From: Escherichia coli | GTDB taxonomy: Bacteria > Pseudomonadota > Gammaproteobacteria > Enterobacterales > Enterobacteriaceae | Reading direction: 5' to 3' (one strand) | Assembly (NCBI RefSeq): GCF_013315695.1 | Contig: NZ_CP054353.1 | Length of the DNA: 64,000 bases | Shown: piece by piece, positions 1 to 55,021 of the stretch | How the letters are laid out: each line of letters begins with the position of its first letter | Position numbering within the stretch: position 1 is the first letter of the stretch | Made by a program: the position numbers and the translations under genes | Notes under the pieces: model-generated | What the model was told of the DNA's origin: nothing | Seen by the model: only the letters and a program-made list of their open reading frames with translations | Databases searched by the model: none

Positions 1-289
1 ACGTCGTTGACCACGCTGATGGTGATTACGCCGATGAACCGATGATCTACCAGGCGTTTCAACCTCTGCCGCGGTTTGGCGATAGCTACACACTCATCGG
101 TAGCTGGATTGTCGATGATGAAGCGTGCGGAATGGGGATCCGTGAAGATAACACACTGATCACCAAAGACACCTCACGTTTCGTTCCGCATTACATTGCT
201 GGATAAGAATGTTTTAGCAATCTCTTTCTGTCATGAATCCATGGCAGTGACCATACTAATGGTGACTGCCATTGATGGAGGGAGACACA

Positions 290-1915
290 GTGCACTGGCA
301 AACTCACACCGTTTTTAATCAACCTATACCATTAAATAACAGCAACTTATACCTGTCTGATGGCGCGCTCTGCGAAGCGGTAACGCGTGAAGGTGCTGGC
401 TGGGATAGCGATTTTCTAGCCAGTATTGGTCAGCAGTTAGGAACGGCTGAATCCCTTGAACTGGGGCGGCTGGCGAATGTGAATCCGCCTGAATTATTGC
501 GCTACGATGCGCAAGGACGCCGTCTGGACGATGTGCGTTTTCACCCCGCCTGGCACCTGCTGATGCAGGCGCTATGTACCAATCGGGTGCACAATCTTGC
601 CTGGGAAGAAGACGCTCGCTCCGGCGCATTTGTGGCGCGCGCGGCGCGTTTTATGTTACATGCGCAGGTTGAGGCAGGGTCGTTATGTCCGATAACCATG
701 ACCTTTGCCGCCACGCCATTGTTGTTACAGATGTTACCCGCGCCGTTTCAGGACTGGACCACGCCGCTATTGAGCGATCGCTACGATTCTCACTTATTGC
801 CAGGTGGGCAAAAACGCGGTTTGTTGATTGGCATGGGAATGACGGAAAAGCAGGGCGGTTCCGATGTTATGAGCAACACCACCCGTGCAGAGCGTCTGGA
901 AGATGGCTCTTATCGGCTGGTGGGGCATAAATGGTTTTTCTCGGTTCCGCAAAGCGATGCGCATCTGGTGCTGGCGCAGACCGCGGGTGGTCTGTCCTGC
1001 TTTTTTGTGCCGCGCTTTTTGCCTGACGGGCAACGCAACGCGATTCGCCTCGAGCGGCTGAAAGATAAGCTGGGTAATCGCTCTAACGCCAGTTGCGAAG
1101 TGGAGTTTCAGGATGCCATTGGTTGGTTGTTGGGGCAGGAAGGGGAAGGAATTCGTCTGATCCTGAAAATGGGTGGGATGACGCGTTTTGATTGCGCCCT
1201 GGGTAGCCATGCCATGATGCGCCGTGCATTTTCGCTGGCGATTTATCATGCACATCAACGCCATGTTTTTGGTAATCCATTGATCCAACAGCCCCTTATG
1301 CGTCATGTCTTAAGTCGCATGGCACTTCAGCTTGAAGGGCAAACGGCGTTGCTGTTTCGTCTTGCGCGAGCGTGGGACCGGCGTGCCGATGCCAAAGAAG
1401 CCCTGTGGGCGCGTTTATTTACGCCTGCGGCAAAATTTGTGATCTGCAAAAGAGGTATGCCGTTTGTGGCCGAAGCGATGGAGGTGCTGGGCGGCATTGG
1501 TTATTGCGAGGAGAGCGAGCTGCCGCGGCTTTACCGGGAGATGCCGGTAAACAGTATTTGGGAAGGTTCCGGCAATATTATGTGCCTGGATGTGTTGCGC
1601 GTTCTCAATAAGCAAGCGGGCGTATACGACTTATTGTCGGAAGCATTTGTGGAAGTGAAAGGGCAGGATCGCTATTTTGATCGCGCGGTTCGTCGTTTAC
1701 AGCAGCAGCTGCGTAAGCCAGCTGAAGAACTGGGGCGAGAGATTACTCATCAGCTATTCCTGCTGGGCTGCGGTGCGCAAATGTTGAAATATGCTTCTCC
1801 GCCAATGGCGCAGGCGTGGTGTCAGGTGATGTTAGATACGCGCGGCGGCGTACGGTTGTCAGAGCAGATCCAGAATGATTTATTGCTGCGGGCGACGGGG
1901 GGAGTGTGTGTGTAA
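290..1915 (+). CDS. aidB: AidB, isovaleryl-CoA dehydrogenase-like adaptive-response protein
   Basis: 541-codon frame from GTG at 290 (VHWQTHTVFNQ...); translation matches recalled E. coli AidB along its length; ORF track shows a 6-codon upstream extension from TTG. Confidence 0.9.
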   Translation: MHWQTHTVFNQPIPLNNSNLYLSDGALCEAVTREGAGWDSDFLASIGQQLGTAESLELGRLANVNPPELLRYDAQGRRLDDVRFHPAWHLLMQALCTNRVHNLAWEEDARSGAFVARAARFMLHAQVEAGSLCPITMTFAATPLLLQMLPAPFQDWTTPLLSDRYDSHLLPGGQKRGLLIGMGMTEKQGGSDVMSNTTRAERLEDGSYRLVGHKWFFSVPQSDAHLVLAQTAGGLSCFFVPRFLPDGQRNAIRLERLKDKLGNRSNASCEVEFQDAIGWLLGQEGEGIRLILKMGGMTRFDCALGSHAMMRRAFSLAIYHAHQRHVFGNPLIQQPLMRHVLSRMALQLEGQTALLFRLARAWDRRADAKEALWARLFTPAAKFVICKRGMPFVAEAMEVLGGIGYCEESELPRLYREMPVNSIWEGSGNIMCLDVLRVLNKQAGVYDLLSEAFVEVKGQDRYFDRAVRRLQQQLRKPAEELGREITHQLFLLGCGAQMLKYASPPMAQAWCQVMLDTRGGVRLSEQIQNDLLLRATGGVCV

Positions 1916-1924
1916 GCGTATACG

Positions 1925-2008
1925 ACTGATGCGACGCTGGTTTCGATTAACTAAATGAAATATGTGAAAATTGTAGGCCGGACAAGGCGCTCGCGCCGCA
2001 TCCGGCAT
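1925..2008. repeat. REP-type extragenic palindromic repeat
   Basis: gtaggccgga...gcgccgcatccggca motif directly visible after aidB. Confidence 0.6.
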
Positions 2009-2031
2009 TGTTCATTTGCTGTAGATGACAC

Positions 2032-2307
2032 TCATGCATACAGTATCGCCTGTACGCGCCAGTTATCAGGCTGCTGGTCTTCGTACATGGTAATAATGCG
2101 GTACCATGACGCACCTTGTTCATCGGCCTTTAACGCCACGATACGTTCCACGTCCTGCGGATCCCCTGAAATATTGCTAACTGAGATCTGACCTATTTCA
2201 TTCAGGCCCGTCACGCAGTCAGCACTGGCGAATTCTGCAGACTGTGCCGTGGCGCTCGCAGGATAAGTCACTAATTGCAGCGAGGGTGAGGCAAGTAATT
2301 GTTTCAT
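2032..2307 (-). CDS. yjfN: YjfN, DUF1471 small periplasmic protein
   Basis: translation MKQLLASPSLQLVTYPASATAQ...; about 91 aa with signal peptide; start placed at the internal Met of the track ORF. Confidence 0.8.
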   Translation of the reverse strand: MKQLLASPSLQLVTYPASATAQSAEFASADCVTGLNEIGQISVSNISGDPQDVERIVALKADEQGASWYRIITMYEDQQPDNWRVQAILYA

Positions 2308-2455
2308 CGTCAGCTCCATTTTTCGTTTCCCCACATGTTGCAGGGCATTCCATCGCGGTAATAAACGCCCAGGCTTCCAGCCGGTAATTTATTGTGCACA
2401 GGTAAACGCATAGGGACGCAAAGCAATGTAAAGCTGACTATGTAAGTTGTCTGAT

Positions 2456-2785
2456 TTATTTACGGTACAAAATGGCTTGTGAATACCACTGTCCTGTCAC
2501 GATGGTTTCGTCCACCATGACGACAACGTAATAATCAGCTTTTGCAGCGACAGCTTTCGCTCTGATTTCTGCTAATGCGTCATCCGGAGAACCCCGAACC
2601 ATCGTGCTTACGCTACCTATTCGCTGTAACCCTTGCGTCTGGTCGCGGCGAATCTCTTGCGGATGGTCCGTTACTGGCGGTGCTGGCTGTGGCGTACCTT
2701 GCAGTGCGCTACAGGCACTTAACATCAACACCAATAATAAACTGGCAAACCGGTAAATAACGCTATTACGTTTCCTGCTAACCAT
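2456..2785 (-). CDS. bsmA: BsmA (YjfO) biofilm stress and motility lipoprotein
   Basis: translation MVSRKRNSVIYRFASLLLVLMLSACS... with lipobox; ATG at 2785. Confidence 0.8.
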   Translation of the reverse strand: MVSRKRNSVIYRFASLLLVLMLSACSALQGTPQPAPPVTDHPQEIRRDQTQGLQRIGSVSTMVRGSPDDALAEIRAKAVAAKADYYVVVMVDETIVTGQWYSQAILYRK

Positions 2786-2966
2786 AGTGTAGTGCCTTAT
2801 TAATTTAACTTTGGGGGAATGTTCCCGAATTGTTACCTGGTACGCGATTTTCGAATGAAAACGTGACGAAAGCGTAACCCACATCTCAACATTATGAACT
2901 AATACCGCCAGCAGAAACTTGTGCTAAGGATTTCTTCATGTCATACCAGACAAAAAGGAGAGACAG

Positions 2967-3716
2967 ATGATTGAAATAGAATCACGCGAGCTGGCAGATA
3001 TTCCCGTTCTTCATGCTTATCCTGTCGGACAAAAAGATACCCCATTACCGTGCGTGATTTTTTATCACGGCTTTACTTCATCCAGTCTGGTGTATAGCTA
3101 TTTTGCCGTTGCGCTGGCGCAGGCTGGTTTGCGGGTGATCATGCCGGATGCGCCCGATCACGGTAGCCGTTTTAGTGGTGACGCAGCGCGGCGGTTAAAT
3201 CAATTCTGGCAAATCTTGCTACAAAGTATGCAGGAATTCACTACTTTACGTGCGGCAATAGCCGAAGAAAACTGGCTGCTTGATGACCGTCTGGCAGTCG
3301 GTGGCGCGTCGATGGGCGCGATGACGGCACTGGGAATTACCGCTCGCCACCCCACGGTGAAATGTACCGCCAGCATGATGGGATCGGGCTATTTTACATC
3401 GCTCGCCCGTTCACTGTTTCCACCGCTGATACCTGAAACGGCAGCACAGCAGAATGAATTCAATAACATTGTCGCGCCGCTGGCAGAGTGGGAAGCGACA
3501 AACCACCTGGAACAACTTGGGGACAGACCTCTACTGCTGTGGCATGGCCTCGACGATGACGTTGTGCCTGCCGATGAATCACTACGTTTGCAGCAGGCCT
3601 TAAGCGAGACGGGACGGGATAAACTGCTAACCTGTTCATGGCAGCCAGGCGTGCGTCACCGCATTACGCCTGAGGCGTTAGATGCTGCCGTGACATTTTT
3701 CCGCCAGCATCTTTAA
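2967..3716 (+). CDS. yjfP: YjfP esterase, alpha/beta hydrolase
   Basis: 249 aa; GGASMG nucleophile-elbow motif; position between bsmA and ulaR as in K-12. Confidence 0.85.
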
Positions 3717-4468
3717 ACACGCAGAATGCTGACCCCTTGCGCTTCCAGTTGTTGCAGGATTTCCGGGTTAGCATTTTTGCCGGTGATAAGCATATCGATT
3801 TGATCGGCACGGCTAAAAAGCATTCCCGCGCGTTCGCCAATCTTACTGCTATCAACCAGTACCACCAGTTTCCCTACCACGCTCAGCATCTTCTGCTCTG
3901 CCATTGCTGTCAGCATATCGGTTTTATACAACCCTTCTGCGGTCAGCCCTTTTCCGCTGGTAAACATCCAGTGCCCGGCATAGAGACTGTTTTCGCTGCC
4001 CTGCGGGCTTAAAGTGATGGACTGACTTTTGTTGTACTGTCCACCCATAATGATCACGCTGTCATGTTCTTGATCGATCAGGTAATTTGCCAGCGGTAGA
4101 TAATTAGTGATGATTTGCACTGGCTTGCCACACATTTCCCGCCCAAGCAGAAACGCGGTGGAGCCGCAGTTGATGACTACGCTTTCGCCCGGATTAACCA
4201 GCTGCGAGGCCGCTTTAGCAATACGTACTTTTTCATCGTGATTCTGCGCCTGATGCAGATTCATCGGCGTCCAGCGCGGGCGCTGCTGGGTAATAGCTTC
4301 TGCGCCATTGCGCACTTTTTTCAGTTTTCCGCTTTCGTCAAGTTTATTGATATCGCGTCGCGCAGTAGCAGGCGAAATTCCCAGACGCTCAACGACTTTC
4401 TCAACGGTCACAAAGCCCAATTGTGCGAGCATTTCCAGGAGGATTTGATGTCTTTGTGCTTCAGTCAT
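3713..4468 (-). CDS. ulaR: UlaR, DeoR-family repressor of the ula regulon
   Basis: 251 aa, [43 protein letters not shown] (HTH) plus sugar-phosphate-binding C-terminal domain. Confidence 0.9.
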
Positions 4469-4575
4469 GAGCTATTCCGATAAAATTTGATTTTTTTAGA
4501 TGATATTTGAAATAGCCAGGAAATACTACGCCGGATAGCGCGAACTTCTCCACGCTATCCGGTATAAACGATAGA

Positions 4576-5640
4576 TTACAGGAATGACTTGAATGGCAGA
4601 TCCGGTTCAATAGTGAAGCAATCATCGAAACCGCGCGGATAGTGGTACTCGAAGTTGTCTTTATCCAGCGGCCAGGTAAATTTGCCGCCCACCTGCCAGA
4701 TAAACGGCTTGAAGCCATACTTCAGACGATCTTTTTTCATCTCCCACAGCACGCGGATCTCTTGCGGATCGGCCTGGAAGTTTGACCAGATATCGTGGTG
4801 GAACGGGATAACCACTTTCGCATTCAGCGCTTCACCCATACGCAGCATATCGGCGCTGGTCATTTTGTCGGTAATACCGCGCGGGTTTTCGCCGTATGAA
4901 CCTAAAGCCACGTCGATCTGATGTTCGTTACCGTGCTTCGCATAATAGTTAGAGTAGTGGGAGTCGCCGCTGTGATACAGGGAGCCGCCAGGCGTTTTGA
5001 ACAGGTAGTTCACCGCGCGATCGTCCATGCCATCTGGCAGTACGCCAGCCGCTTTTTGATCGGCAGGCAGGGTGATCAGTGCAGTACGGTCGAAAGCATC
5101 AAACGCATGAATTTCAATGTCTTTCACTTTTACTACATCGCCCGGTTTGACCACGATGCAACGCTCTTTCGGTACGCCCCAGCCAATCCACAAATCCACA
5201 CAGGTTTTCGGTCCAATGAACGGTACGTCATCAGCACCGTTCTGCATCACAGCAGCAGCGACGTTGACGTCGATATGATCGTTGTGATCGTGAGTCGCCA
5301 GTACCGCGTCGACCTGGCGAATCGCAAACGGATCAAGAACAAACGGGGTGGTGCGCAGGTTTGGCTGCAGTTTTTTCACGCCAGCCATGCGCTGCATCTG
5401 GTGACCCTGTTTCATTAACGGGTTACCGTGACTTTGTTTGCCAGTGCCGCACCAGAAATCAACGCAAACGTTGGTGCCACCTTCCGATTTTAACCAGATC
5501 CCGGTGCAGCCAAGCCACCACATCGCAAATGTGCCAGGTGCGACCTGTTCTTGTTCAATTTCTTCATTCAACCAGCTACCCCACTCCGGGAAAGTGCTCA
5601 GGATCTAGGATTCACGGGTGATACTTTTCACTTTACTCAT
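4576..5640 (-). pseudogene. ulaG: ulaG (L-ascorbate-6-phosphate lactonase) with an in-frame TAG at codon 12
   Basis: Minus strand from ATG at 5638-5640 reads [34 protein letters not shown]...; the rest of the frame down to 4576 is intact and matches UlaG. The track ORF 4576..5571 is the TTG-initiated remainder. Confidence 0.75.
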
Positions 5641-7392
<1,752 letters not shown>

Positions 7393-7407
7393 TAAGGAGT
7401 TTTGATT

Positions 7408-7713
7408 ATGACCGTACGTATTCTGGCTGTCTGTGGCAACGGACAAGGCAGTTCCATGATCATGAAGATGAAAGTGGACCAGTTTTTAACCCAATCAAAC
7501 ATTGACCACACGGTAAACAGCTGCGCGGTTGGCGAATACAAAAGCGAGTTGAGCGGCGCGGATATCATCATCGCTTCTACGCACATTGCGGGCGAAATCA
7601 CCGTGACCGGCAACAAATACGTGGTTGGTGTGCGCAACATGCTCTCTCCTGCCGACTTTGGCCCGAAACTGCTGGAAGTGATCAAAGAGCATTTCCTGCA
7701 GGATGTGAAGTAA
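7408..7713 (+). CDS. ulaB: UlaB, ascorbate PTS EIIB
   Basis: 101 aa, [16 protein letters not shown] with active-site Cys. Confidence 0.9.
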
Positions 7714-7722
7714 GGACGCGCC

Positions 7723-8160
7723 ATGAAATTACGTGATTCGCTGGCGGAAGCTGAGACATGGCAGGACGCAGTGAAAATCGGCGTGGACCTGCTGGTAGCG
7801 GCAGATGTGGTAGAGCCGCGTTACTACCAGGCGATTCTGGATGGCGTTGAACAGTTTGGTCCTTATTTCGTTATCGCTCCGGGGCTGGCAATGCCGCACG
7901 GGCGTCCGGAAGAGGGCGTTAAGAAAACCGGTTTCTCTCTGGTAACGCTGAAAAAGCAGCTGGAATTTAACCACGACGACAACGATCCGGTGGATATCCT
8001 CATCACCATGGCGGCGGTTGATGCCAACACTCACCAGGAAGTAGGCATCATGCAGATCGTCAACCTGTTTGAAGATGAAGAGAATTTCGACCGTTTACGC
8101 GCCTGCCGTACCGAGCAGGAAGTACTGGATCTCATTGACCGCACCAACGCGGCAGCTTAA
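7723..8160 (+). CDS. ulaC: UlaC, ascorbate PTS EIIA; about 9 codons shorter than the K-12 protein as recalled
   Basis: 145 aa, [24 protein letters not shown]...; recalled K-12 UlaC is 154 aa with [23 protein letters not shown]. Confidence 0.8.
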
Positions 8161-8173
8161 GAAGGAATTGAAC

Positions 8174-8824
8174 ATGTCATTACCGATGTTGCAAGTCGCG
8201 CTGGACAACCAGACTATGGATAGCGCCTACGAAACCACTCGCCTGATTGCCGAAGAAGTCGACATTATCGAAGTGGGTACCATTCTGTGCGTGGGCGAAG
8301 GCGTGCGTGCGGTTCGCGATCTGAAAGCGCTCTACCCGCACAAAATCGTGCTGGCAGACGCCAAAATTGCCGATGCGGGCAAAACTCTTTCTCGTATGTG
8401 CTTCGAAGCCAACGCTGACTGGGTGACCGTAATTTGTTGTGCGGATATCAACACCGCCAAAGGTGCGCTGGACGTGGCAAAAGAGTTTAACGGCGACGTG
8501 CAGATCGAACTGACCGGTTACTGGACCTGGGAACAGGCGCAACAGTGGCGCGACGCAGGTATTCAGCAGGTGGTTTATCACCGCAGCCGTGACGCGCAGG
8601 CCGCTGGCGTGGCGTGGGGTGAAGCCGATATCACTGCGATCAAACGTCTTTCCGATATGGGCTTCAAAGTCACCGTCACCGGTGGCCTGGCGCTGGAAGA
8701 TCTGCCGCTGTTCAAAGGCATTCCAATTCATGTGTTTATCGCCGGTCGCAGCATCCGTGATGCCGCTTCTCCGGTTGAAGCCGCGCGTCAGTTCAAACGT
8801 TCCATCGCCGAACTGTGGGGCTAA
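8174..8824 (+). CDS. ulaD: UlaD, 3-keto-L-gulonate-6-phosphate decarboxylase
   Basis: 216 aa from ATG 8174, [36 protein letters not shown]... Confidence 0.9.
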
Positions 8825-8833
8825 GGAGCGGAT

Positions 8834-9688
8834 ATGTTGTCCAAACAAATCCCGCTTGGCATCTATGAAAAAGCGCTCCCCGCCGGGGAGTGCTGGCTGG
8901 AACGCCTGCGACTGGCAAAAACGTTGGGCTTCGATTTTGTCGAGATGTCGGTAGATGAAACGGACGAGCGCCTGTCGCGCCTCGACTGGAGCCGCGAGCA
9001 GCGTCTGGCGCTGGTGAATGCGATTGTTGAAACCGGCGTGCGTGTGCCGTCCATGTGCCTTTCTGCCCATCGTCGTTTCCCGTTGGGCAGCGAAGATGAC
9101 GCGGTGCGGGCGCAGGGGCTGGAGATTATGCGTAAAGCCATCCAGTTCGCCCAGGACGTTGGCATTCGCGTGATCCAGCTGGCGGGCTATGACGTTTACT
9201 ATCAGGAAGCCAATAACGAAACGCGTCGTCGTTTCCGTGACGGCCTGAAAGAGAGCGTTGAGATGGCGAGCCGCGCGCAGGTGACGCTGGCGATGGAGAT
9301 CATGGATTACCCATTGATGAACTCCATCAGCAAGGCGCTGGGCTACGCGCACTATCTCAACAACCCGTGGTTCCAGCTCTACCCGGATATCGGCAACCTG
9401 TCGGCGTGGGACAACGATGTGCAGATGGAATTGCAGGCCGGAATAGGGCATATCGTCGCGGTGCATGTGAAAGACACCAAACCTGGCGTCTTCAAAAACG
9501 TGCCATTTGGCGAAGGCGTGGTGGATTTCGAACGTTGCTTTGAAACGCTCAAACAGAGTGGCTATTGCGGGCCGTACCTGATTGAGATGTGGAGCGAAAC
9601 GGCGGAAGACCCGGCGGCAGAAGTGGCGAAAGCGCGTGATTGGGTGAAAGCGCGCATGGCCAAAGCAGGCATGGTGGAGGCTGCATAA
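8834..9688 (+). CDS. ulaE: UlaE, L-ribulose-5-phosphate 3-epimerase
   Basis: 284 aa, [25 protein letters not shown]..., TIM-barrel sugar-phosphate epimerase. Confidence 0.9.
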
Positions 9689-10323
9689 TGCAAAAGCTAA
9701 AACAGCAGGTGTTTGAAGCCAACATGGATCTGCCGCGCTATGGGCTGGTGGTGATCAAGCCCAGCGGCGTCGCCTACGAAACCATGAAAGCAGACGATAT
9801 GGTGGTGGTTGATATGAGCGGCAGGGTGGTGGAAGGGGAGTATCGCCCATCTTCCGACACCGCGACGCATCTCGAACTCTACCGTCGTTACCCGTCGCTT
9901 GGCGGCATTGTCCATACCCACTCCACTCATGCCACCGCATGGGCGCAGGCGGGGCTGGCGATCCTGGCGTTAGGCACCACGCACGCTAACTACTTCTTTG
10001 GTGATATCCCGTGTACGCGTGGATTAAGCGAAGAAGAGGTGCAGGGTGAGTATGAACTGAACACTGGCAAAGTGATTATCGAAACGCTGGGTGACGCCGA
10101 GCCGCTGCATACGCCGGGAATTGTGGTGTATCAGCACGGGCCGTTCGCCTGGGGGAAAAATGCCCACGATGCGGTGCATAACGCGGTGGTGATGGAGGAA
10201 GTGGCAAAAATGGCGTGGATTGCGCGCAGTATTAACCCACAACTGAATCACATCGACAGCTTCCTCATGAATAAACACTTCATGCGTAAGCACGGTCCTA
10301 ACGCCTATTACGGGCAGAAGTAA
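9688..10323 (+). CDS. ulaF: UlaF, L-ribulose-5-phosphate 4-epimerase (class II aldolase family); carries an in-frame 17-codon deletion
   Basis: ATG at 9688 overlaps the ulaE stop; 211 aa, [30 protein letters not shown]...; the AraD/SgbE/UlaF family has ...[25 protein letters not shown] here. Confidence 0.8.
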
Positions 10324-10419: not shown

Positions 10420-10971
10420 ATGGCTATCAATGGATTGTTTGTCAGAACGGATCCGCAGCGTCGCCGCTATGGCGTTGCGTTACTTGTGGGTGTGCTTTCA
10501 GGAATTATTTCAGCATTTGTTAAATGGGGAGCGGAAGTCCCCTTGCCACCGCGCACATTTTCCGGTGGTCGCGATGAATTTAACCCGCCGTATATCTTTC
10601 TACGAGATTATTTAGGTATCGACCCAACCCAAACTGTGTATACCTTCTCGGAACATATTATCAACCCGGTGATGGTGACGCATATCATCTTCTCCCTGGT
10701 TTTTGCGATAGGGTATTGTGTTGTCGCGGAAATTTTCCCGAAAGTGAAATTATGGCAGGGGATATTAGCAGGGCTTATTGTGACAGTGGCAGTCCACGGT
10801 ATATTTTGCCCGGCGCTGAATTTAACGCCGCCGCTCACTCAATTGCCTTTTGACGAATATGCGTCTGAAATCTTGGGGCATATTTTCTGGTTCTGGATAA
10901 TAGAGATTATGCGCCGCGACTTACGTAATCGCATTACTCATGAGCCGGATCCGGAAGTCGCAATTCGGTGA
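10420..10971 (+). CDS. Small inner-membrane protein, DUF1440/YagU-like
   Basis: 183 aa, ATG with AGGTG RBS 5 nt upstream; four hydrophobic segments; motifs [69 protein letters not shown] resemble YagU-type proteins (from memory). Confidence 0.65.
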
Positions 10972-14172: not shown

Positions 14173-14520
14173 TTATTCTACGCTGTTGGTATCGGTGCGT
14201 TTGTTAATCATCTGGTTAACCAGCCACAAAAAGCCATTGAGAAAGTTATTGATTCTACATGGAATTATTATATTTCTAATCCCTGGTTTTTAAAAGTTGT
14301 GCATAGTGAAAATCAAAGTAAAGGTGTGCATTATGCAAAATCACAGCGTCTCTTAGAAATTAACCATACGCACTTGCAGTTAATGGAATCCTTATTGGAT
14401 GAAGGGAAGAAACACAATATTTTTAAGCCAGATAGCGACCCATTGCAGGTGAATATTAATATTGCTGCGCTTGGGGGATATTATTTGATCAACCAGCATA
14501 CGCTTGGCCTGGTTTATCTG
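14173..14520 (+). pseudogene. ytfA: ytfA remnant: C-terminal fragment of a TetR-family regulator, no HTH domain, 3' end abutted by the IS
   Basis: Frame opens after TAA at 14170-14172 and reads ...[22 protein letters not shown]...[24 protein letters not shown] (ligand-domain-like), then runs into the IS left end. Track ORF 14299..14790 is a chimera of this frame and IS sequence. Confidence 0.5.
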
Positions 14521-14574
14521 GTGCGCCGTAAAACCCCGTCCTTCAGGGCGGGGATATACGGCGCGGTTTTCCAC

Positions 14575-15006
14575 CTAACCAGGTGTTTGCTGTTGTTCAA
14601 TGTATTGACGGATGGCGGATATTGGCGCACCTCCGCAGCTACTGGCAAAATAGCCAGGACTCCACAAAACGCCTTTGTAGTAATACCTGACTGCAATATC
14701 TGGTCGATCTCGTCGCAGTCACCTACCCGATACGCCTTTGAGGCTGTTTACCAGACTGGATATCGCCAGTTTGGGAGGATAGTTAATTAACAAATGGACG
14801 TGATCTGGTTCGCCATCCATTTCAACCAGTTCAGCTTCAAAATCAGCACATACATTTGAAAAGTAAGTGCGTAGTTTTTCTGTCGCGTCATAGTCAAAAA
14901 TCTGACGTCGGTATCTGGTGACAAAGACCAGGTGAACATGCATCAGGAAAACACAATGCCTTCCCCGTCGGATATCGGTTTCTTTATTCACAGACCAAAG
15001 TATCAT
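14575..15006 (-). pseudogene. tnpA: IS200-type TnpA (HUH/Y1 transposase) inactivated by an in-frame TGA
   Basis: ATG 15006: MILWSVNKETDIRRGRHCVFLMHVHLVFVTRYRRQ...[31 protein letters not shown](14719-14721)[50 protein letters not shown]. HxH motif is upstream of the stop; the conserved SPGYFA...GGAP C-terminus lies after it. Confidence 0.8.
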
Positions 15007-15013
15007 TTGGCCT

Positions 15014-16222
15014 GTGAAACGACTACAGGCATTTAAATTCCAGTTAAGACCCGGTGGTCAACAGGAGCGTGAAATGAGGCGCTTCGCAGGCGCATGCCGT
15101 TTCGTTTTCAATCGTGCTCTGGCGCTTCAGAATGAGAATCATGAGGCCGGTAATAAATACATCCCTTACGGGAAAATGGCTTCCTGGCTGGTTGAGTGGA
15201 AAAACGCCACTGAAATGCAATGGCTTAAAGATTCGCCCTCACAGCCATTGCAACAGTCACTGAAAGACCTTGAGCGGGCTTACAAAAACTTCTTCCAGAA
15301 GCGGGCTGCTTTTCCCCGATTCAAAAAGCGGGGACAGAATGATGCATTCCGCTACCCGCAGGGCGTTAAGCTCGATCAGGAAAACAGCCGTATTTTTCTG
15401 CCGAAACTTGGCTGGATGCGCTACCGGAACAGCCGTCAGGTCACGGGTGTTGTGAAAAATGTCACTGTCAGCCAGTCCTGCGGTAAGTGGTACATCAGTA
15501 TTCAGACAGAAAGTGAAGTATCCACTCCGGTTCACCCTTCAGCATCAATGGTCGGGCTGGATGCTGGCGTGGCTAAACTCGCCACGCTGTCAGATGGCAC
15601 AGTCTTTGAGCCTGTAAACAGTTTTCAGAAAAACCAGAAGACGCTGGCGAGACTTCAGCGACAGTTAAGCCGCAAGGTCGAATTCAGCAATAACTGGCAG
15701 AAGCAGAAACGCAAAATACAGCGACTGCATTCCCGTATCGCAAATATCCGCAGGGACTACCTTCACAAAGTCACAACGACCGTCAGCAAAAACCACGCAA
15801 TGATAGTCATTGAGGATTTGAAGGTCAGCAACATGTCAAAGTCAGCAGCGGGTACGGTCAGCCAGCCGGGGCGCAATGTCCGGGCAAAATCAGGTTTAAA
15901 CCGTTCGATACTGGATCAGGGCTGGTATGAAATGCGCCGCCAGCTTGAGTACAAGCAGCTCTGGCGTGGCGGTCAGGTGCTTGCTGTTCCGCCAGCGTAC
16001 ACAAGCCAGCGTTGCGCGTGCTGTGGTCATACAGCGAAAGAAAATCGCCTGTCACAAAGTAAATTCAGATGCCAGGCATGTGGATATACAGCGAACGCTG
16101 ATGTAAATGGCGCTCGTAACATTTTAGCGGCGGGGCACGCCGTTCTTGCCTGTGGAGAGATGGTGCAGTCAGGCCGCTCGTTGAAGCAGGAACCCACCGA
16201 AATGATTCAGGCGACAGCCTGA
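15014..16222 (+). CDS. tnpB: TnpB (IS605 OrfB family; RuvC-like RNA-guided nuclease family), apparently intact
   Basis: 402 aa from GTG 15014; N-terminal [12 protein letters not shown]...RFVFNRAL; RuvC-I GLDAGV, RuvC-II VIEDL, zinc finger CACCGH...CQACGY, Ruv[13 protein letters not shown]. Confidence 0.85.
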
Positions 16223-16290
16223 ACGAAGCAGGGATCCACGTCCTTCAGGGCGTGGAGGATGTCAACATATCAGTATGGTTTCCCCCCAGG
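16080..16290 (+). ncRNA. Candidate TnpB right-end guide RNA (omega/reRNA) spanning the tnpB 3' end and right-end hairpin
   Basis: Inferred from family architecture only; right-end hairpin at 16238-16257 is visible; no promoter or processing site identified. Confidence 0.3.
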
Positions 16291-16356
16291 CACTGGAAGC
16301 CAGACGTAAGGTCATCAAAGAGACGCTCCTTAGCTGGCTTTTGGTTGATCCTTCAT

Positions 16357-21441: not shown

Positions 21442-22303
21442 CTACTTATTAACATTAAAAAGATTGCTTACGCTTTCGGCTAACGTTGTCGTTGGGCGGC
21501 CAATCAATTTGCTCAGCGTTTTGCTGTCATCAAACAGACCGCCTTTCGATGCGCCAACGTCAGAATCCGCCAGCATATCCGCCAGTCCGTCAGGCAGTCC
21601 GACGCTTTTCAGTGCCGCGGCGAAATCAGCCTCACTCAGATTTTGATAGGTAACCTGTTTGCCGCTCTGTTTGGTCAGCTCTGCCGCTAACTGTGTCAAC
21701 GTCCAGGCACTATCGCCCGCCAGTTCGTAAACCTTGCCTTCGTGACCGGCTTCGCTAATCACGCGTGCCGCAGCTGCCGCATAATCTGCCCGCGTTGCTG
21801 AGGCGATTTTGCCATCGCCCGCCGCACCGATAAATACGCCGTGTTCCAGTGCTGCCGGGGCGCTGGCGAGGTAGTTTTCGCTGTACCAGCCGTTGCGCAG
21901 CAGGGTGTAAACGATGCCAGAATCAGCCAGCATTTTCTCCGTCTCGATGTGCTCATCGGCGAGGCCGAGCGGAGATTTATCCGCGTGAAGCAGACTGGTA
22001 TAAGCGATAAATTTCACACCAGCCGCCTTTGCGGCATTAATAACATTACGATGCTGCGGGGCACGTTGACCCACTTCGCTGGAAGAGATCAGCAGTAGTT
22101 TTTCCACTCCCTGAAGTGCAGATGTCAGTGCGGCTTCATCGCCGTAGTCAGCCTGACGCACGGTAATGCCTTGTGCTGTCAGTGCCTGGGCTTTTGCCGG
22201 ATTACGAACGATAGCCACTATTTGGCTGGCAGGAACCGTTTTCATCAAAGGATTCAATAACATAGTGTCCAAGTTGGCCAGTGGCACCAGTAATTGCGAT
22301 CAT
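21442..22303 (-). pseudogene. qorB: qorB (ytfG) NAD(P)H:quinone oxidoreductase with a +1 frameshift near the 5' end
   Basis: ATG 22303 reads MIAITGATGQLGHYVIESFDENGSCQPNSGYRS-stop; the rest (MKTVPASQIVAIVRNPAKAQ...VNK) is in another frame. ATG-to-stop span is 862 nt, one more than a multiple of three; shift lies in the T-run at + strand 22246-22251. Confidence 0.7.
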
Positions 22304-25985: not shown

Positions 25986-26897
25986 ATGTTACCCAGGATC
26001 AGACACAATAATTTTATTGGTGCAGTGGAGTTATTTGTAAAGTCTTCGTATACAAAAACACATTCAAACAATTTTTTTAACAATATCCAGCATGCATTTA
26101 AGAAAAAAGATTGGATTTCGAATTATGATAGCCTGTTAACTTTGCGGGAGTTCTTTCGTTGCGCAACTCAGATTGGTAAAAGTAGTTATCAGGTGCTTTC
26201 ATCAAAAAATGAAACTGTTCACGCCATGGATAATTTTCTTATCAGTTTCAGCCTTAAAGATAACGGTGCCGAATATACAATGACATTGCGAGGTAGTGGA
26301 TTTGAATACGAAGAAATTCCCATAACAATAAATGAGTATAACTCATTCATGGATTTCAAAAACCGCGAGTTTCCGTTAGAACAAAACAGAAGATTGTATG
26401 CCTGTGATATTTTGCAGAAAAAACAGTCTGACATACCAAAAAGGATTAAAGGTTATATTCGCCAGGCGATTGGTGACGTGTCTTTAGGTTATGCCTTATT
26501 GGAGGATATAGTAAGCAAATTAAAACGGGGTAAATTTGAACTCCAAATACCAGGCGGTGGAATTAAAGAATGCGATGGATGGTATATTTACGAAAAAATA
26601 ATTGATGATAATTTTGCCATAGTCATAGAATCTTTGGGCTTTGCGCTTAAAATCTATGGAGGGGATGAACGTTTTCGTAATGGTTCCTCTGTTGTTTTGG
26701 AGGATGAAGATTACTCTCTTATTTATAATTTTCTGGTTAATGCAGGTTGCCAACAAGTCGAATTAGCCGAACAAGTGGATGCGATAGTAAGTGCGAATCT
26801 GGCCGTAGATAGTGATATTACCGAAGAGGAGATTTGCGAGAAATATAAATCAACCATTGAGGCGTTTAAAAAAGAGCAACTAGCGTTACCAGTATGA
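25986..26897 (+). CDS. ytfI: YtfI, uncharacterized AT-rich ORFan
   Basis: 303-aa ORF, markedly AT-rich, no recognisable domain. Confidence 0.6.
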   Translation: MLPRIRHNNFIGAVELFVKSSYTKTHSNNFFNNIQHAFKKKDWISNYDSLLTLREFFRCATQIGKSSYQVLSSKNETVHAMDNFLISFSLKDNGAEYTMTLRGSGFEYEEIPITINEYNSFMDFKNREFPLEQNRRLYACDILQKKQSDIPKRIKGYIRQAIGDVSLGYALLEDIVSKLKRGKFELQIPGGGIKECDGWYIYEKIIDDNFAIVIESLGFALKIYGGDERFRNGSSVVLEDEDYSLIYNFLVNAGCQQVELAEQVDAIVSANLAVDSDITEEEICEKYKSTIEAFKKEQLALPV

Positions 26898-26986
26898 GTT
26901 AGGTGTAAGAGCTCAGAGACTTAATTCCCCTATCCCATAGATAACGATAGGGGAAAATTATTTTTGCAGAATTTATGTTATTGCCA

Positions 26987-36497: not shown

Positions 36498-36504
36498 TAA
36501 TAAA

Positions 36505-36534
36505 AGCACGCCACCTTCGGGTGGCGTTGTTTTA
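36505..36534 (+). terminator. Rho-independent terminator of tamAB-ytfP
   Basis: acgccaccttcgggtggcgt hairpin followed by tgtttta. Confidence 0.75.
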
Positions 36535-36876
36535 TGCGATGTATCTCGCGATTTTTTTTTGTAACTTTTCCATCTTTTGCTTTTCTCTCCGAGCCGCTTT
36601 CCATATCTGCAATCGCATAAAAAACTCTGCTGGCGTTCACAAATGTGCAGGGGTAAAACGGGGGCACGCTTTGAACGGTGAGTATGAGTGAGGTCGGCTA
36701 ACTTCCAGCAAGTGGCTATGAACAGCAAAATGGTGGTCGGGTTTGCTTGTTCTTACCGTTCAAGCCTTGCAACCGCTGAGAATAATGATGGTGGAATAGA
36801 GAGTTTATTTATCGCGGGCATAAAAAAACCCTTACTAACCGAAGCCCGGCGTTCAGGGTTATTGCGCTAGAAGAAC

Positions 36877-52533: not shown

Positions 52534-53955
52534 TTAAACAATGTCCAGCGTGCCCAGGCGGTATTTCCGCTGATAGATAAACGAGGTGAGTACAATCGGG
52601 ATGATGATGGCGATAGCCATTGCCAGCGCAAACACCTGCCAGTAGCTCGGTTGAATCGAGAGAATTCCCGGCAGGCCGCCTACGCCGATGCCATTCGCCA
52701 TAACGCCGTTCAGGCCACATAGCAATCCTGCCAGACCAGAACCAATCATCGCGCACAGCATCGGGAAGCGATATTTCAGGTTGATGCCGTACATTGCAGG
52801 CTCAGTGACCCCAAGCCAGGCGGAGATAGCGGCAGGAACGGAGATCTCGCGTTCATTGTGCTTGCGGCTGGAAATGATAATGCCTATCACGGCGGAGCCC
52901 TGAGCGATATTCGACAGCGCAATCAGCGGCCACACTGGCGTACCACCCATGCTTTGAATCATCTGCAAATCAATAGCAAGCGTGGTCTGGTGTACCCCGG
53001 TGATCACCAGCGGGGCGTACAGGAAGCCAAACAATGCCGCGCCAATCGGAGCAAAGCTGCCGGTCATCAGGTGACGTACCGCAAAGGCAACGCCATCGCC
53101 AATCATGCGACCAAACGGACCAATCAGCGCATGGGCGAGGAACACCGCGAGGATCAGCGAACAGACGGGCACCACCACCAGATAGAGGTAATCTGGCACG
53201 ATGCGTTTAAGGCGAGTTTCAATAACGCCCAGCGCCAGCCCGGCTAACAGTGCCGGGATCACCTGCGCCTGATAGCCCACTTTGGCGATGCTGAACATGC
53301 CAAAGTCCCACACTTCCGGCAGCTGCTGCCCGAGCAGATAAGCGTTCATCAGCTGGGGGGAAACCAGTGTCACGCCAAGTACGATACCAAGGATCGGCGT
53401 GCCGCCCATTTTTTTCACCGCCGACCAGCAAATCCCGACCGGCAGGTAGAAGAAGATCGCTTCACCGATCAACCACAGAAAATCGTAGATCGTTTGCAGG
53501 GAAGGGTACATTTGCGCCAGCGTTTGACCGTTGCTCATGGGCAAATCGCCGATCACATTGCGAAAACCGAGGATCAAACCGCCGCTAATCAACGCGGGCA
53601 GCAACGGGAAGAAGATCTCCGCGAAATGAGAGATCAACTGCTCATGCCATTTCATATTCTGCCGGGCGGCTTTTTTTACCTGCTCTTTATCAACCTGCGC
53701 CTGTCCGGTTGACGCTATCAGTGCTTGATAGTAATCACCCACGTTGGTGCCAATCACCACCTGAAATTGCCCGGCATTGGTGAAACAGCCTTTCACCATG
53801 GGGAGTTGCTCAATTTCTTTCGGTCTGGCATTGGCCGGTTGGTTGAGGACAAAGCGCAGGCGAGTAATACAGTAGCTCACCGTCGCAATATTGCCGCGCC
53901 CGCCGACCAGTTCAATCAACCGATCGATATCCGTTTGGTTTATTTTGCTCATCAT
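52534..53955 (-). CDS. treB: TreB, trehalose PTS EIIBC
   Basis: 473 aa, N-terminal EIIB (ITRLRFVL cysteine region) and EIIC membrane domain. Confidence 0.9.
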   Translation of the reverse strand: MMSKINQTDIDRLIELVGGRGNIATVSYCITRLRFVLNQPANARPKEIEQLPMVKGCFTNAGQFQVVIGTNVGDYYQALIASTGQAQVDKEQVKKAARQNMKWHEQLISHFAEIFFPLLPALISGGLILGFRNVIGDLPMSNGQTLAQMYPSLQTIYDFLWLIGEAIFFYLPVGICWSAVKKMGGTPILGIVLGVTLVSPQLMNAYLLGQQLPEVWDFGMFSIAKVGYQAQVIPALLAGLALGVIETRLKRIVPDYLYLVVVPVCSLILAVFLAHALIGPFGRMIGDGVAFAVRHLMTGSFAPIGAALFGFLYAPLVITGVHQTTLAIDLQMIQSMGGTPVWPLIALSNIAQGSAVIGIIISSRKHNEREISVPAAISAWLGVTEPAMYGINLKYRFPMLCAMIGSGLAGLLCGLNGVMANGIGVGGLPGILSIQPSYWQVFALAMAIAIIIPIVLTSFIYQRKYRLGTLDIV

Positions 53956-54073
53956 AAAGCCCCATGGCAGATGACATTTTTGGTTGGCTGCAGAATATAT
54001 TGCGCGGAAAAATTTAAAAACGGGAACGTTCCCGAAACGCAGCGAAGATCACAATTTATCGTTCAGGAAACGA

Positions 54074-55021
54074 TCAGGACAGGGTGGCGGGGATGATGAT
54101 TTGTTGCGGTTCGCTGCGTCCGGTTACCTGCGCGATCAACTGGTAGGCCGCCTGGCGTCCAGCTTCGGCGTAACCAGGATCTACGGTGACGATCTCCGGA
54201 TGAAGGAATTTCATTAATGGCGTATTACCGACGCTCGCCAGTTGCAAGGTGTCGATGCGTTGCTCTTGCAGGTATTTACTTGCGCCAAGTGCCAGCGTGT
54301 CGGTTGCGCACAGTAAGGCGGTAGTTTCAGGCGTAATCACTTTTACTACGTTCTCATAGCCTTGCTTCATAGCAAGGCCTGGCAGGGCGGCAACGGGATG
54401 CAGTTTATGCGCTTTGCAGAACGCCAGGTAGGCTTCGTGACGTCGCTTCCCGGTCGTCACGTCACTATGCGGCACGCCGAGATAACTGATATTGCGATGC
54501 CCCTGGTCATACAGCCGTTGCATCAGGATCTTGATTGCCCCTTCGTCGTCATAACAGACCGAAGCAAAGCCTTTTGCGTCACGCGCCAGCAGAACCAGCG
54601 ATGACTGCCAGTGGGCTAACATTTCTTCTGTTATGCCGGTAAAACCGAACAGCACTACGCCGTCGATATTACGCCGTTTCAGCACCCCCAAATGTTCGGC
54701 AACTAATTGCGGGGAAAACTGACTTTCCATCATGATTGGATCGTAACCTTGTTCATAGAACGCTGGCAGCATGGTTTGAACGGCGAGATTTTCTGACAAC
54801 GAATCCAGACGGGTGACAATGATGGCGACCACTTTATCGCTTTGCCCACGCATAGCGCGTGCAGAACGGGAAGGGGAAAATCCATGCTGATTCATCACTG
54901 CTTCAACACGCTCGCGCGTGCGCTGGCTCACGCCGCTTTCGTTATTCAGCACCCGGGAAACCGTAGATTTCCCCACGCCGCTTAAGCGCGCGATGTCTTT
55001 GATGGTCAGCCGATTTTGCAT
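54074..55021 (-). CDS. treR: TreR, LacI-family trehalose repressor
   Basis: 315 aa, MQNRLTIKDIARLSGVGKSTVSRVLNNES... HTH. Confidence 0.9.
   Translation of the reverse strand: MQNRLTIKDIARLSGVGKSTVSRVLNNESGVSQRTRERVEAVMNQHGFSPSRSARAMRGQSDKVVAIIVTRLDSLSENLAVQTMLPAFYEQGYDPIMMESQFSPQLVAEHLGVLKRRNIDGVVLFGFTGITEEMLAHWQSSLVLLARDAKGFASVCYDDEGAIKILMQRLYDQGHRNISYLGVPHSDVTTGKRRHEAYLAFCKAHKLHPVAALPGLAMKQGYENVVKVITPETTALLCATDTLALGASKYLQEQRIDTLQLASVGNTPLMKFLHPEIVTVDPGYAEAGRQAAYQLIAQVTGRSEPQQIIIPATLS

Follow-up and report, generated by a model that had tools for sequence, protein, structure and literature searches.

The divergent ula regulon occupies positions 3713-10323 of the window, by which we mean the whole 64,000-nucleotide stretch of Escherichia coli DNA analysed here. 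Its repressor and lactonase genes, ulaR and ulaG, lie on the minus strand and ulaABCDEF lies on the plus strand. The features relevant to this analysis are as follows:

3713..4468, minus strand: ulaR, repressor; intact, protein identical to K-12
4576..5640, minus strand: ulaG, L-ascorbate-6-phosphate lactonase; collinear with K-12, with TGG changed to TAG (amber) at codon 12 (window 5605-5607)
5995..7713, plus strand: ulaA and ulaB, PTS EIIC and EIIB; full length, one amino-acid change each
7723..8160, plus strand: ulaC, PTS ascorbate EIIA; 145 aa (intact, 154), 27-bp in-frame deletion with its junction at about 7747-7749
8174..9688, plus strand: ulaD and ulaE; full length
9688..10323, plus strand: ulaF, L-ribulose-5-phosphate 4-epimerase allele; open reading frame and translation of 211 aa (intact, 228)
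9742..9750, plus strand: ulaF deletion junction; single retained copy of GGGCTGGTG, 51 bp (17 codons) lost
9964..9966, plus strand: Leu codon CTG at UlaF position 110 (P110L); private to the window/EcPF7 sub-branch
9988..9990, plus strand: Asn codon AAC at UlaF position 118 (residue 101 of the window protein); replaces Asp, the equivalent of AraD Asp120

The ATG of ulaF at 9688 overlaps the stop codon of ulaE (ATAATG), and both homology and operon position, directly after ulaE in ulaABCDEF, identify the gene product as a UlaF. An earlier note on this DNA had described this UlaF as a protein of 211 aa from which 17 codons, including the conserved TWGNVS motif, were absent. The open reading frame and its translation give the same length, and the alignment with intact alleles recovers the same loss. 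When ulaF was aligned with K-12 MG1655 and with strain 90-3040, the 51 bp missing at window position 9742 proved to be the sole indel in the gene, and an alignment of 10.8 kb to the intact allele of 90-3040 likewise placed one gap, of 51 bp, in ulaF. The reading frame is kept. The lost peptide comprises 17 residues, T22-V38 or equivalently G19-R35, with TWGNVS inside it.

The end-points of this gap fall on a direct repeat, from which we infer a slipped-strand or short-homology deletion. In both K-12 and 90-3040, GGGCTGGTG (Gly-Leu-Val) occurs twice in ulaF at a spacing of 51 bp, the two copies encoding Gly19-Leu20-Val21 and Gly36-Leu37-Val38 of intact UlaF, and the window has one copy. The repeat is perfect over 9 bp in the intact alleles and extends to 10 bp in K-12. 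K-12 ulaF holds no other direct repeat of at least 9 bp within 100 bp, and there are only a handful across the whole regulon; for a 51-bp deletion placed at random, the probability of a 9-bp match between its ends is about 4e-6. With an ancestral repeat at both ends, one copy kept and a deleted length equal to the repeat spacing, the 51-bp loss is a classic slipped-strand deletion. The earlier suggestion of slippage at a possible repeat within 9739-9756 can be sharpened accordingly, as the repeat is a true one at the DNA level and lies at 9742-9750, inside that interval.

The distribution of the allele was assessed in a set of complete E. coli genomes numbering 5,426; the region is present in 5,424 of them. 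The window junction was matched in one piece, at an identity of at least 99.7%, in exactly 10 of the 5,426 (EcPF7, KL53, CFSAN051542, FAM21845, HH107, LZHX12, NCTC 13148, F467, A30 and 873.10). The isolates behind these genomes were collected on four continents, from human urine, cheese, biosolids, beef/cattle, a horse and a surface swab. In another 24-kb part of the window, the nine best matches (99.9-100% identity) all belong to the ten, and the next genome reaches at most 99.6%; on this basis the nine form one tight clone. A30 falls outside the best 30 matches over the same 24 kb, and is either a more distant relative or a recipient of the allele by recombination. EcPF7 is the complete genome closest to the window, and FAM21845 has been typed as O68:H14, phylogroup A, ST1434 (PMC5514686). 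The E. coli lineage that the window represents is related to ST1434. On public contigs, exact 211-aa UlaF proteins occur 415 times in a Pro110 form and 154 times in the Leu110 form, which is that of the window. The earlier note had named collinearity of the window protein with functional UlaF orthologues of its lineage as decisive against its reading; no such collinearity was seen, as all lineage relatives carry the deletion, and more than 5,400 other E. coli are full length.

The deletion is accompanied by amino-acid changes. K63R and D118N are lineage-specific relative to both intact references, and beyond these two and P110L there are five further UlaF substitutions relative to K-12. Three more private amino-acid changes have arisen in ulaF within the lineage, against no synonymous one. 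D118N stems from an adjacent double change, GCC GAC to GCT AAC at 9986-9990, and is fixed in all ten deletion genomes. A 46-mer across codon 118 was found in the same 10 genomes only, and a megablast search with this 46-mer, in which the 28-base word would miss an allele differing at the adjacent synonymous site, returned no full-length allele with Asn118. No intermediates that would order the ulaF deletion, D118N and the ulaC deletion were found.

Conservation was evaluated in a set of 46 diverse full-length homologues, 42-59% identical to UlaF. Not one of them has a gap in UlaF residues 21-37. Gly26 and Ser29 are invariant in the set and Asn27 is present in 41 of 46, while position 118 is Asp in 45, Glu in 1 and Asn in none. 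Position 110 is less constrained, with Pro in 36 of the 46. K-12 UlaF aligns end to end with its paralogue AraD (PDB 1JDI; E = 3e-93), and in the alignment to the PDB sequence UlaF Asn27 corresponds to AraD Asn28 and UlaF Asp118 to AraD Asp120. AraD Asn28 reportedly lies in the phosphate pocket, and D120N is said to cut the kcat of AraD by about three orders of magnitude. The earlier claim that the missing stretch holds the phosphate-pocket Asn thus agrees with where Asn27 maps. In PDB 1K0W position 120 is Asn, the same residue as at position 118 of window UlaF, and Asp120 and Tyr229 have been described as the catalytic residues of AraD (PMC5434028, a secondary source). The equivalent residue of FucA, Asn29, has also been a mutagenesis target (PDB 1E4B and 1E49).

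To place the deletion in three dimensions, we used AlphaFold models of the intact and shortened proteins. The intact UlaF model (pLDDT 97.9) superposes on 1JDI at 1.0 A rmsd with a TM-score of 0.94-0.96; in it, residues 2-17 form helix alpha1, residues 27-32 strand beta1 and residues 37-40 strand beta2. Mapped onto this model, the deletion takes out the alpha1-beta1 loop, the whole of strand beta1 and the turn of the beta1-beta2 hairpin. In the model of the 211-aa protein the mean pLDDT is 94.6 and the remaining fold is confident, although AlphaFold does not predict stability; over residues 11-30 the pLDDT drops to 77-85, and the neighbouring strand is gone. These changes near the deletion are suggestive, and may hint at structural damage.

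Much of the active site is retained. All four Zn ligands, D74, H93, H95 and H167 (AraD Asp76, His95, His97 and His171), are kept in window UlaF, as are Lys41, Ser43/Gly44, Ser72/Ser73 and the C-terminal Tyr (AYYGQK). The protein scores 436.9 bits against NCBIfam NF009003 (cut-off 331), with window residues 19-211 on profile positions 36-228, and matches Pfam Aldolase_II at E = 6e-43, with residues 20-176 on positions 31-182 of the 183 in the model. The annotation pipeline passes the short UlaF because these HMMs still recognise it, from profile position 36 or 31 onward. Two features are lacking, namely a full N-terminal domain with beta1 and the G-N-x-S motif that carries the phosphate-site Asn, and the catalytic Asp. 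Judged by residue conservation and by studies of its paralogue AraD, the UlaF deletion allele is almost certainly a loss-of-function allele. As two defining features of an active L-ribulose-5-phosphate 4-epimerase are missing, ulaF in this window is better catalogued as a probable pseudogene or defective allele than as an enzyme.

Damage in the regulon extends beyond ulaF. The ulaC deletion removes nine residues near the N-terminus (the NKSIRLQAE region), its junction showing microhomology of only 3 bp (GAA), and NF007694 aligns UlaC residues 8-145 to profile positions 17-154. It occurs in the same 10 complete genomes as the ulaF deletion, and the exact shortened UlaC protein was found on 566 public contigs, in agreement with the 569 contigs that carry an exact shortened UlaF. 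The ulaG nonsense mutation (W12*) is present in nine of the ten deletion genomes, ulaG of strain A30 being intact. A third deletion had been considered as the source of the difference between 342 and 354 aa in ulaG, and was rejected, the difference being due to the nonsense codon and a re-called start. Several disabling lesions that the lineage has inherited sit in one pathway, in 10 genomes for ulaF (deletion and D118N), 10 for ulaC and nine for ulaG. The reading of this locus as a defect of a single gene stands as far as the ulaF deletion is concerned, but was incomplete in overlooking D118N, the 27-bp deletion in ulaC and the ulaG amber codon. Once these are added, what looked like one odd gene becomes a decaying pathway.

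Outside ula, damage in the 64-kb window is limited to a frameshift in qorB and an early stop in ytfI, listed here with one additional gene that lies close to the regulon:

10420-10971, plus strand: YagU-family gene between ulaF and yjfY; absent in K-12, present in 90-3040 and the lineage
21442-22303, minus strand: qorB; 1-bp insertion (CCTTG to CCTTTG) at nucleotide 55, frameshift at codon 19 relative to K-12
25986-26924, plus strand: ytfI; stop nine codons before the K-12 stop (L303*), 11 amino-acid differences

From its sequence, qorB is a probable pseudogene. The annotation of relatives gives the shorter, 912-nt ytfI as a normal gene. Across the window we compared 56 K-12 genes, eight of them ula: damage was found in 3 of the 8 ula genes and in 1-2 of the 48 others (Fisher p = 0.008-0.017, depending on whether ytfI is counted).

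Some further differences in gene content were seen in the window. At about 14200-16350, an IS200/IS605 tnpA and TnpB (InsQ) lie inside a TetR/AcrR (ytfA-like) gene, the fragments of which are flagged by PGAP in EcPF7. Over 15 kb the window and EcPF7 show 14 differences, 12 of them within the TnpB gene (15430-15905). At about 36500-36870 the window lacks the chpS-chpB toxin-antitoxin pair, which K-12 has between ytfP and ppa.

Relative to K-12, the ula genes have a pS of 0.15-0.19 and a pN/pS of 0.006-0.09. As the divergence is overwhelmingly synonymous, ula seems to have been under purifying selection for most of its history, and the damage seems recent. Accelerated evolution of ula was considered as a source of the high divergence from K-12 and rejected, given the low pN/pS and the equal divergence of cycA, ytfE and yjgA; the divergence looks like ordinary allelic mosaicism. 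Measured against two outgroups, fixed lineage-specific changes number 53 synonymous to 6 nonsynonymous, a ratio uninformative on timing. Within the lineage the ula SNPs are 13 nonsynonymous to 4 synonymous, and in ulaF and ulaG together 9 to 0. Among five strains, nonsynonymous density is 1.15/kb in ula against 0.38/kb in 21 kb of control genes (binomial p = 0.03, on small counts), with equal synonymous density in the two sets, while the direct contrast of nonsynonymous to synonymous changes between ula and control is not significant with so few SNPs (Fisher p = 0.40). The SNP pattern fits relaxed selection on ula, on few sites, with the caveat that young clonal lineages have an excess of nonsynonymous polymorphism throughout their genomes. 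Within the control set, treB and treR (52534-55021) hold five of the eight nonsynonymous SNPs of the 21 kb in the five lineage strains, and treR is flagged as partial by PGAP in FAM21845 and 873.10; treB/treR may be a second locus under relaxed selection.

We consider it likely, with a probability of roughly 0.85, that these observations reflect lineage-specific decay of the L-ascorbate regulon, in which slippage inactivated UlaF, further hits followed and the loss was tolerated. In an ancestor of the lineage, replication slippage or short-homology recombination between the two GGGCTGGTG copies removed one copy and the intervening DNA. The resulting UlaF would have been catalytically dead and was probably misfolded. 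D118N, the ulaC deletion and, later, the ulaG amber codon would then represent further hits in a regulon no longer needed, presumably leaving uptake, the first enzymatic step and the final step of the pathway all blocked, with the ula genes now probably drifting under relaxed selection. Tolerance of the loss would mean that ascorbate fermentation is dispensable in the niches of this lineage. The paralogues AraD and SgbE, commonly present in E. coli, may exist in this lineage too. The in-frame nature of the deletions, together with intact ulaA, ulaB, ulaD, ulaE and ulaR, could point either to very recent decay or to some residual function. Published phenotype data on L-ascorbate for strains of the lineage were not found, and the paper on FAM21845 does not mention ascorbate.

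Other explanations have to be weighed against neutral loss of the pathway. The ulaF deletion is almost certainly neither an error of sequencing or assembly nor a mutation confined to a single isolate: the identical junction recurs in 10 complete genomes from differing laboratories, hosts and continents, and the exact shortened proteins stand on hundreds of contigs. Independent sequencing of the ten genomes, with those contigs, rules out an artefact altogether. A second possibility is that the short UlaF is still a working epimerase, or has taken on a new role, with the beta1 hairpin dispensable and the frame kept by selection. The preserved reading frame, the retention of the Zn ligands, Lys41, Ser43/Gly44, Ser72/Ser73 and the C-terminal Tyr, a score that remains above the NCBIfam subfamily cut-off and the persistence of the allele across some 570 assemblies, which span many hosts and many countries, would all be in keeping with this. 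We nevertheless regard it as very improbable, since two invariant residues and the phosphate-site Asn are lost from a segment in which the 46 homologues have no gap, the catalytic Asp is replaced as well, three more private changes without a synonymous one have accumulated in ulaF within the lineage, and two further genes of the pathway are damaged. The preserved frame is itself weak evidence, arising by chance in 1 in 3 cases for one deletion and in 1 in 9 for two.

A selected, ordered shutdown of the pathway deserves more thought, even though we judge it unlikely. Here a dead UlaF would cause a toxic build-up of L-ribulose-5-phosphate, favouring blocks further upstream, in ulaC and later in ulaG. 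In this unlikely scheme, the ulaC deletion would halt uptake and phosphorylation, and the ulaG nonsense mutation the first enzymatic step. L-ribulose-5-phosphate is toxic to araD mutants given arabinose. Its accumulation is documented as toxic in E. coli for the ara pathway, where it shapes fitness (PMC7269641). The lesions beyond UlaF also all lie in steps that feed the pathway (ulaC and ulaG), with ulaD and ulaE untouched, and the ulaF lesion predates the ulaG stop, as A30 combines an intact ulaG with both deletions. On the other hand, the intact ulaG of A30 could be recombinant, with three outgroup-state sites clustered within 500 bp, and no intermediate was found that would order the ulaC and ulaF lesions. 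L-ribulose-5-phosphate could be cleared by AraD or SgbE, should these be present and expressed. Three hits in 6 kb would also be expected from neutral decay after one gene dies, and neutral decay fits the data equally well. An ordered shutdown, if it did take place, would mirror in nature the classic araD-suppressor experiment.

Whichever route led to it, the damage is concealed by current annotation. PGAP calls none of ulaF, ulaC and ulaG a pseudogene in the lineage genomes, all three appearing as ordinary CDSs. In nine genomes ulaG is given as a 342-aa CDS that begins at an ATC codon directly after the amber stop, and the short ulaF receives a generic product name without the UlaF suffix of intact alleles. 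Because RefSeq/PGAP labels the damaged genes as normal, genome-scale models would be wrong in predicting ascorbate fermentation for some 570 assemblies from a lineage that includes heat-resistant dairy and urinary isolates. The practical value of these findings therefore lies in annotation and metabolic modelling, and no new biological question is opened. The ulaF locus also cleanly illustrates an in-frame deletion between repeats as it occurs in nature, and D118N is a naturally occurring change at a position whose AraD equivalent has been identified as catalytic.

Our search of the literature for ulaF pseudogenes, this allele or loss of ula in E. coli returned nothing relevant, and comparison is best made with known proteins and known cases of decay. 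One such protein is K-12 UlaF (b4198), the orthologue in the same place after ulaE, with the same ATAATG overlap and about 95% nucleotide identity outside the gap; the window protein differs in being without residues 19-35 (equivalently 22-38) and in its substitutions, including D118N, K63R and P110L. AraD (1JDI) shares the fold, with 61% identity over the residues aligned to the intact UlaF model, and 15 of the 17 residues in the deleted UlaF segment are identical to it. AraD is active and of full length, whereas in the window protein the catalytic Asp is changed and the whole of beta1 is lost. Small in-frame deletions in ulaF do appear to occur sporadically elsewhere in E. coli, judging from EFM1675501.1, a 224-aa UlaF on one contig from another E. 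coli, outside the window, that is without HNAV near residue 180.

Deletions between short direct repeats (slipped-strand deletions) are a source of pseudogenes, for example in the decay of metabolic genes in Shigella and host-restricted Salmonella. The window resembles these cases: one repeat copy is kept, the deleted length matches the repeat spacing, and a single dispensable catabolic pathway has taken several hits. Unlike host-restricted Salmonella and Shigella, the window lineage is not known as host-restricted, and its decay is local. A parallel for ulaG itself comes from Shigella dysenteriae Sd197, whose UlaG is without the N-terminal helices (the hexamerisation motif) and is an exception among 180 orthologues (PMC3219644). 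The amber at codon 12 of the window ulaG would likewise remove the N-terminus, although both the lesion and the lineage are different, the change here being a nonsense codon masked by an annotated ATC start. Both the mechanism of origin and the multi-hit pattern in a dispensable catabolic pathway are textbook.
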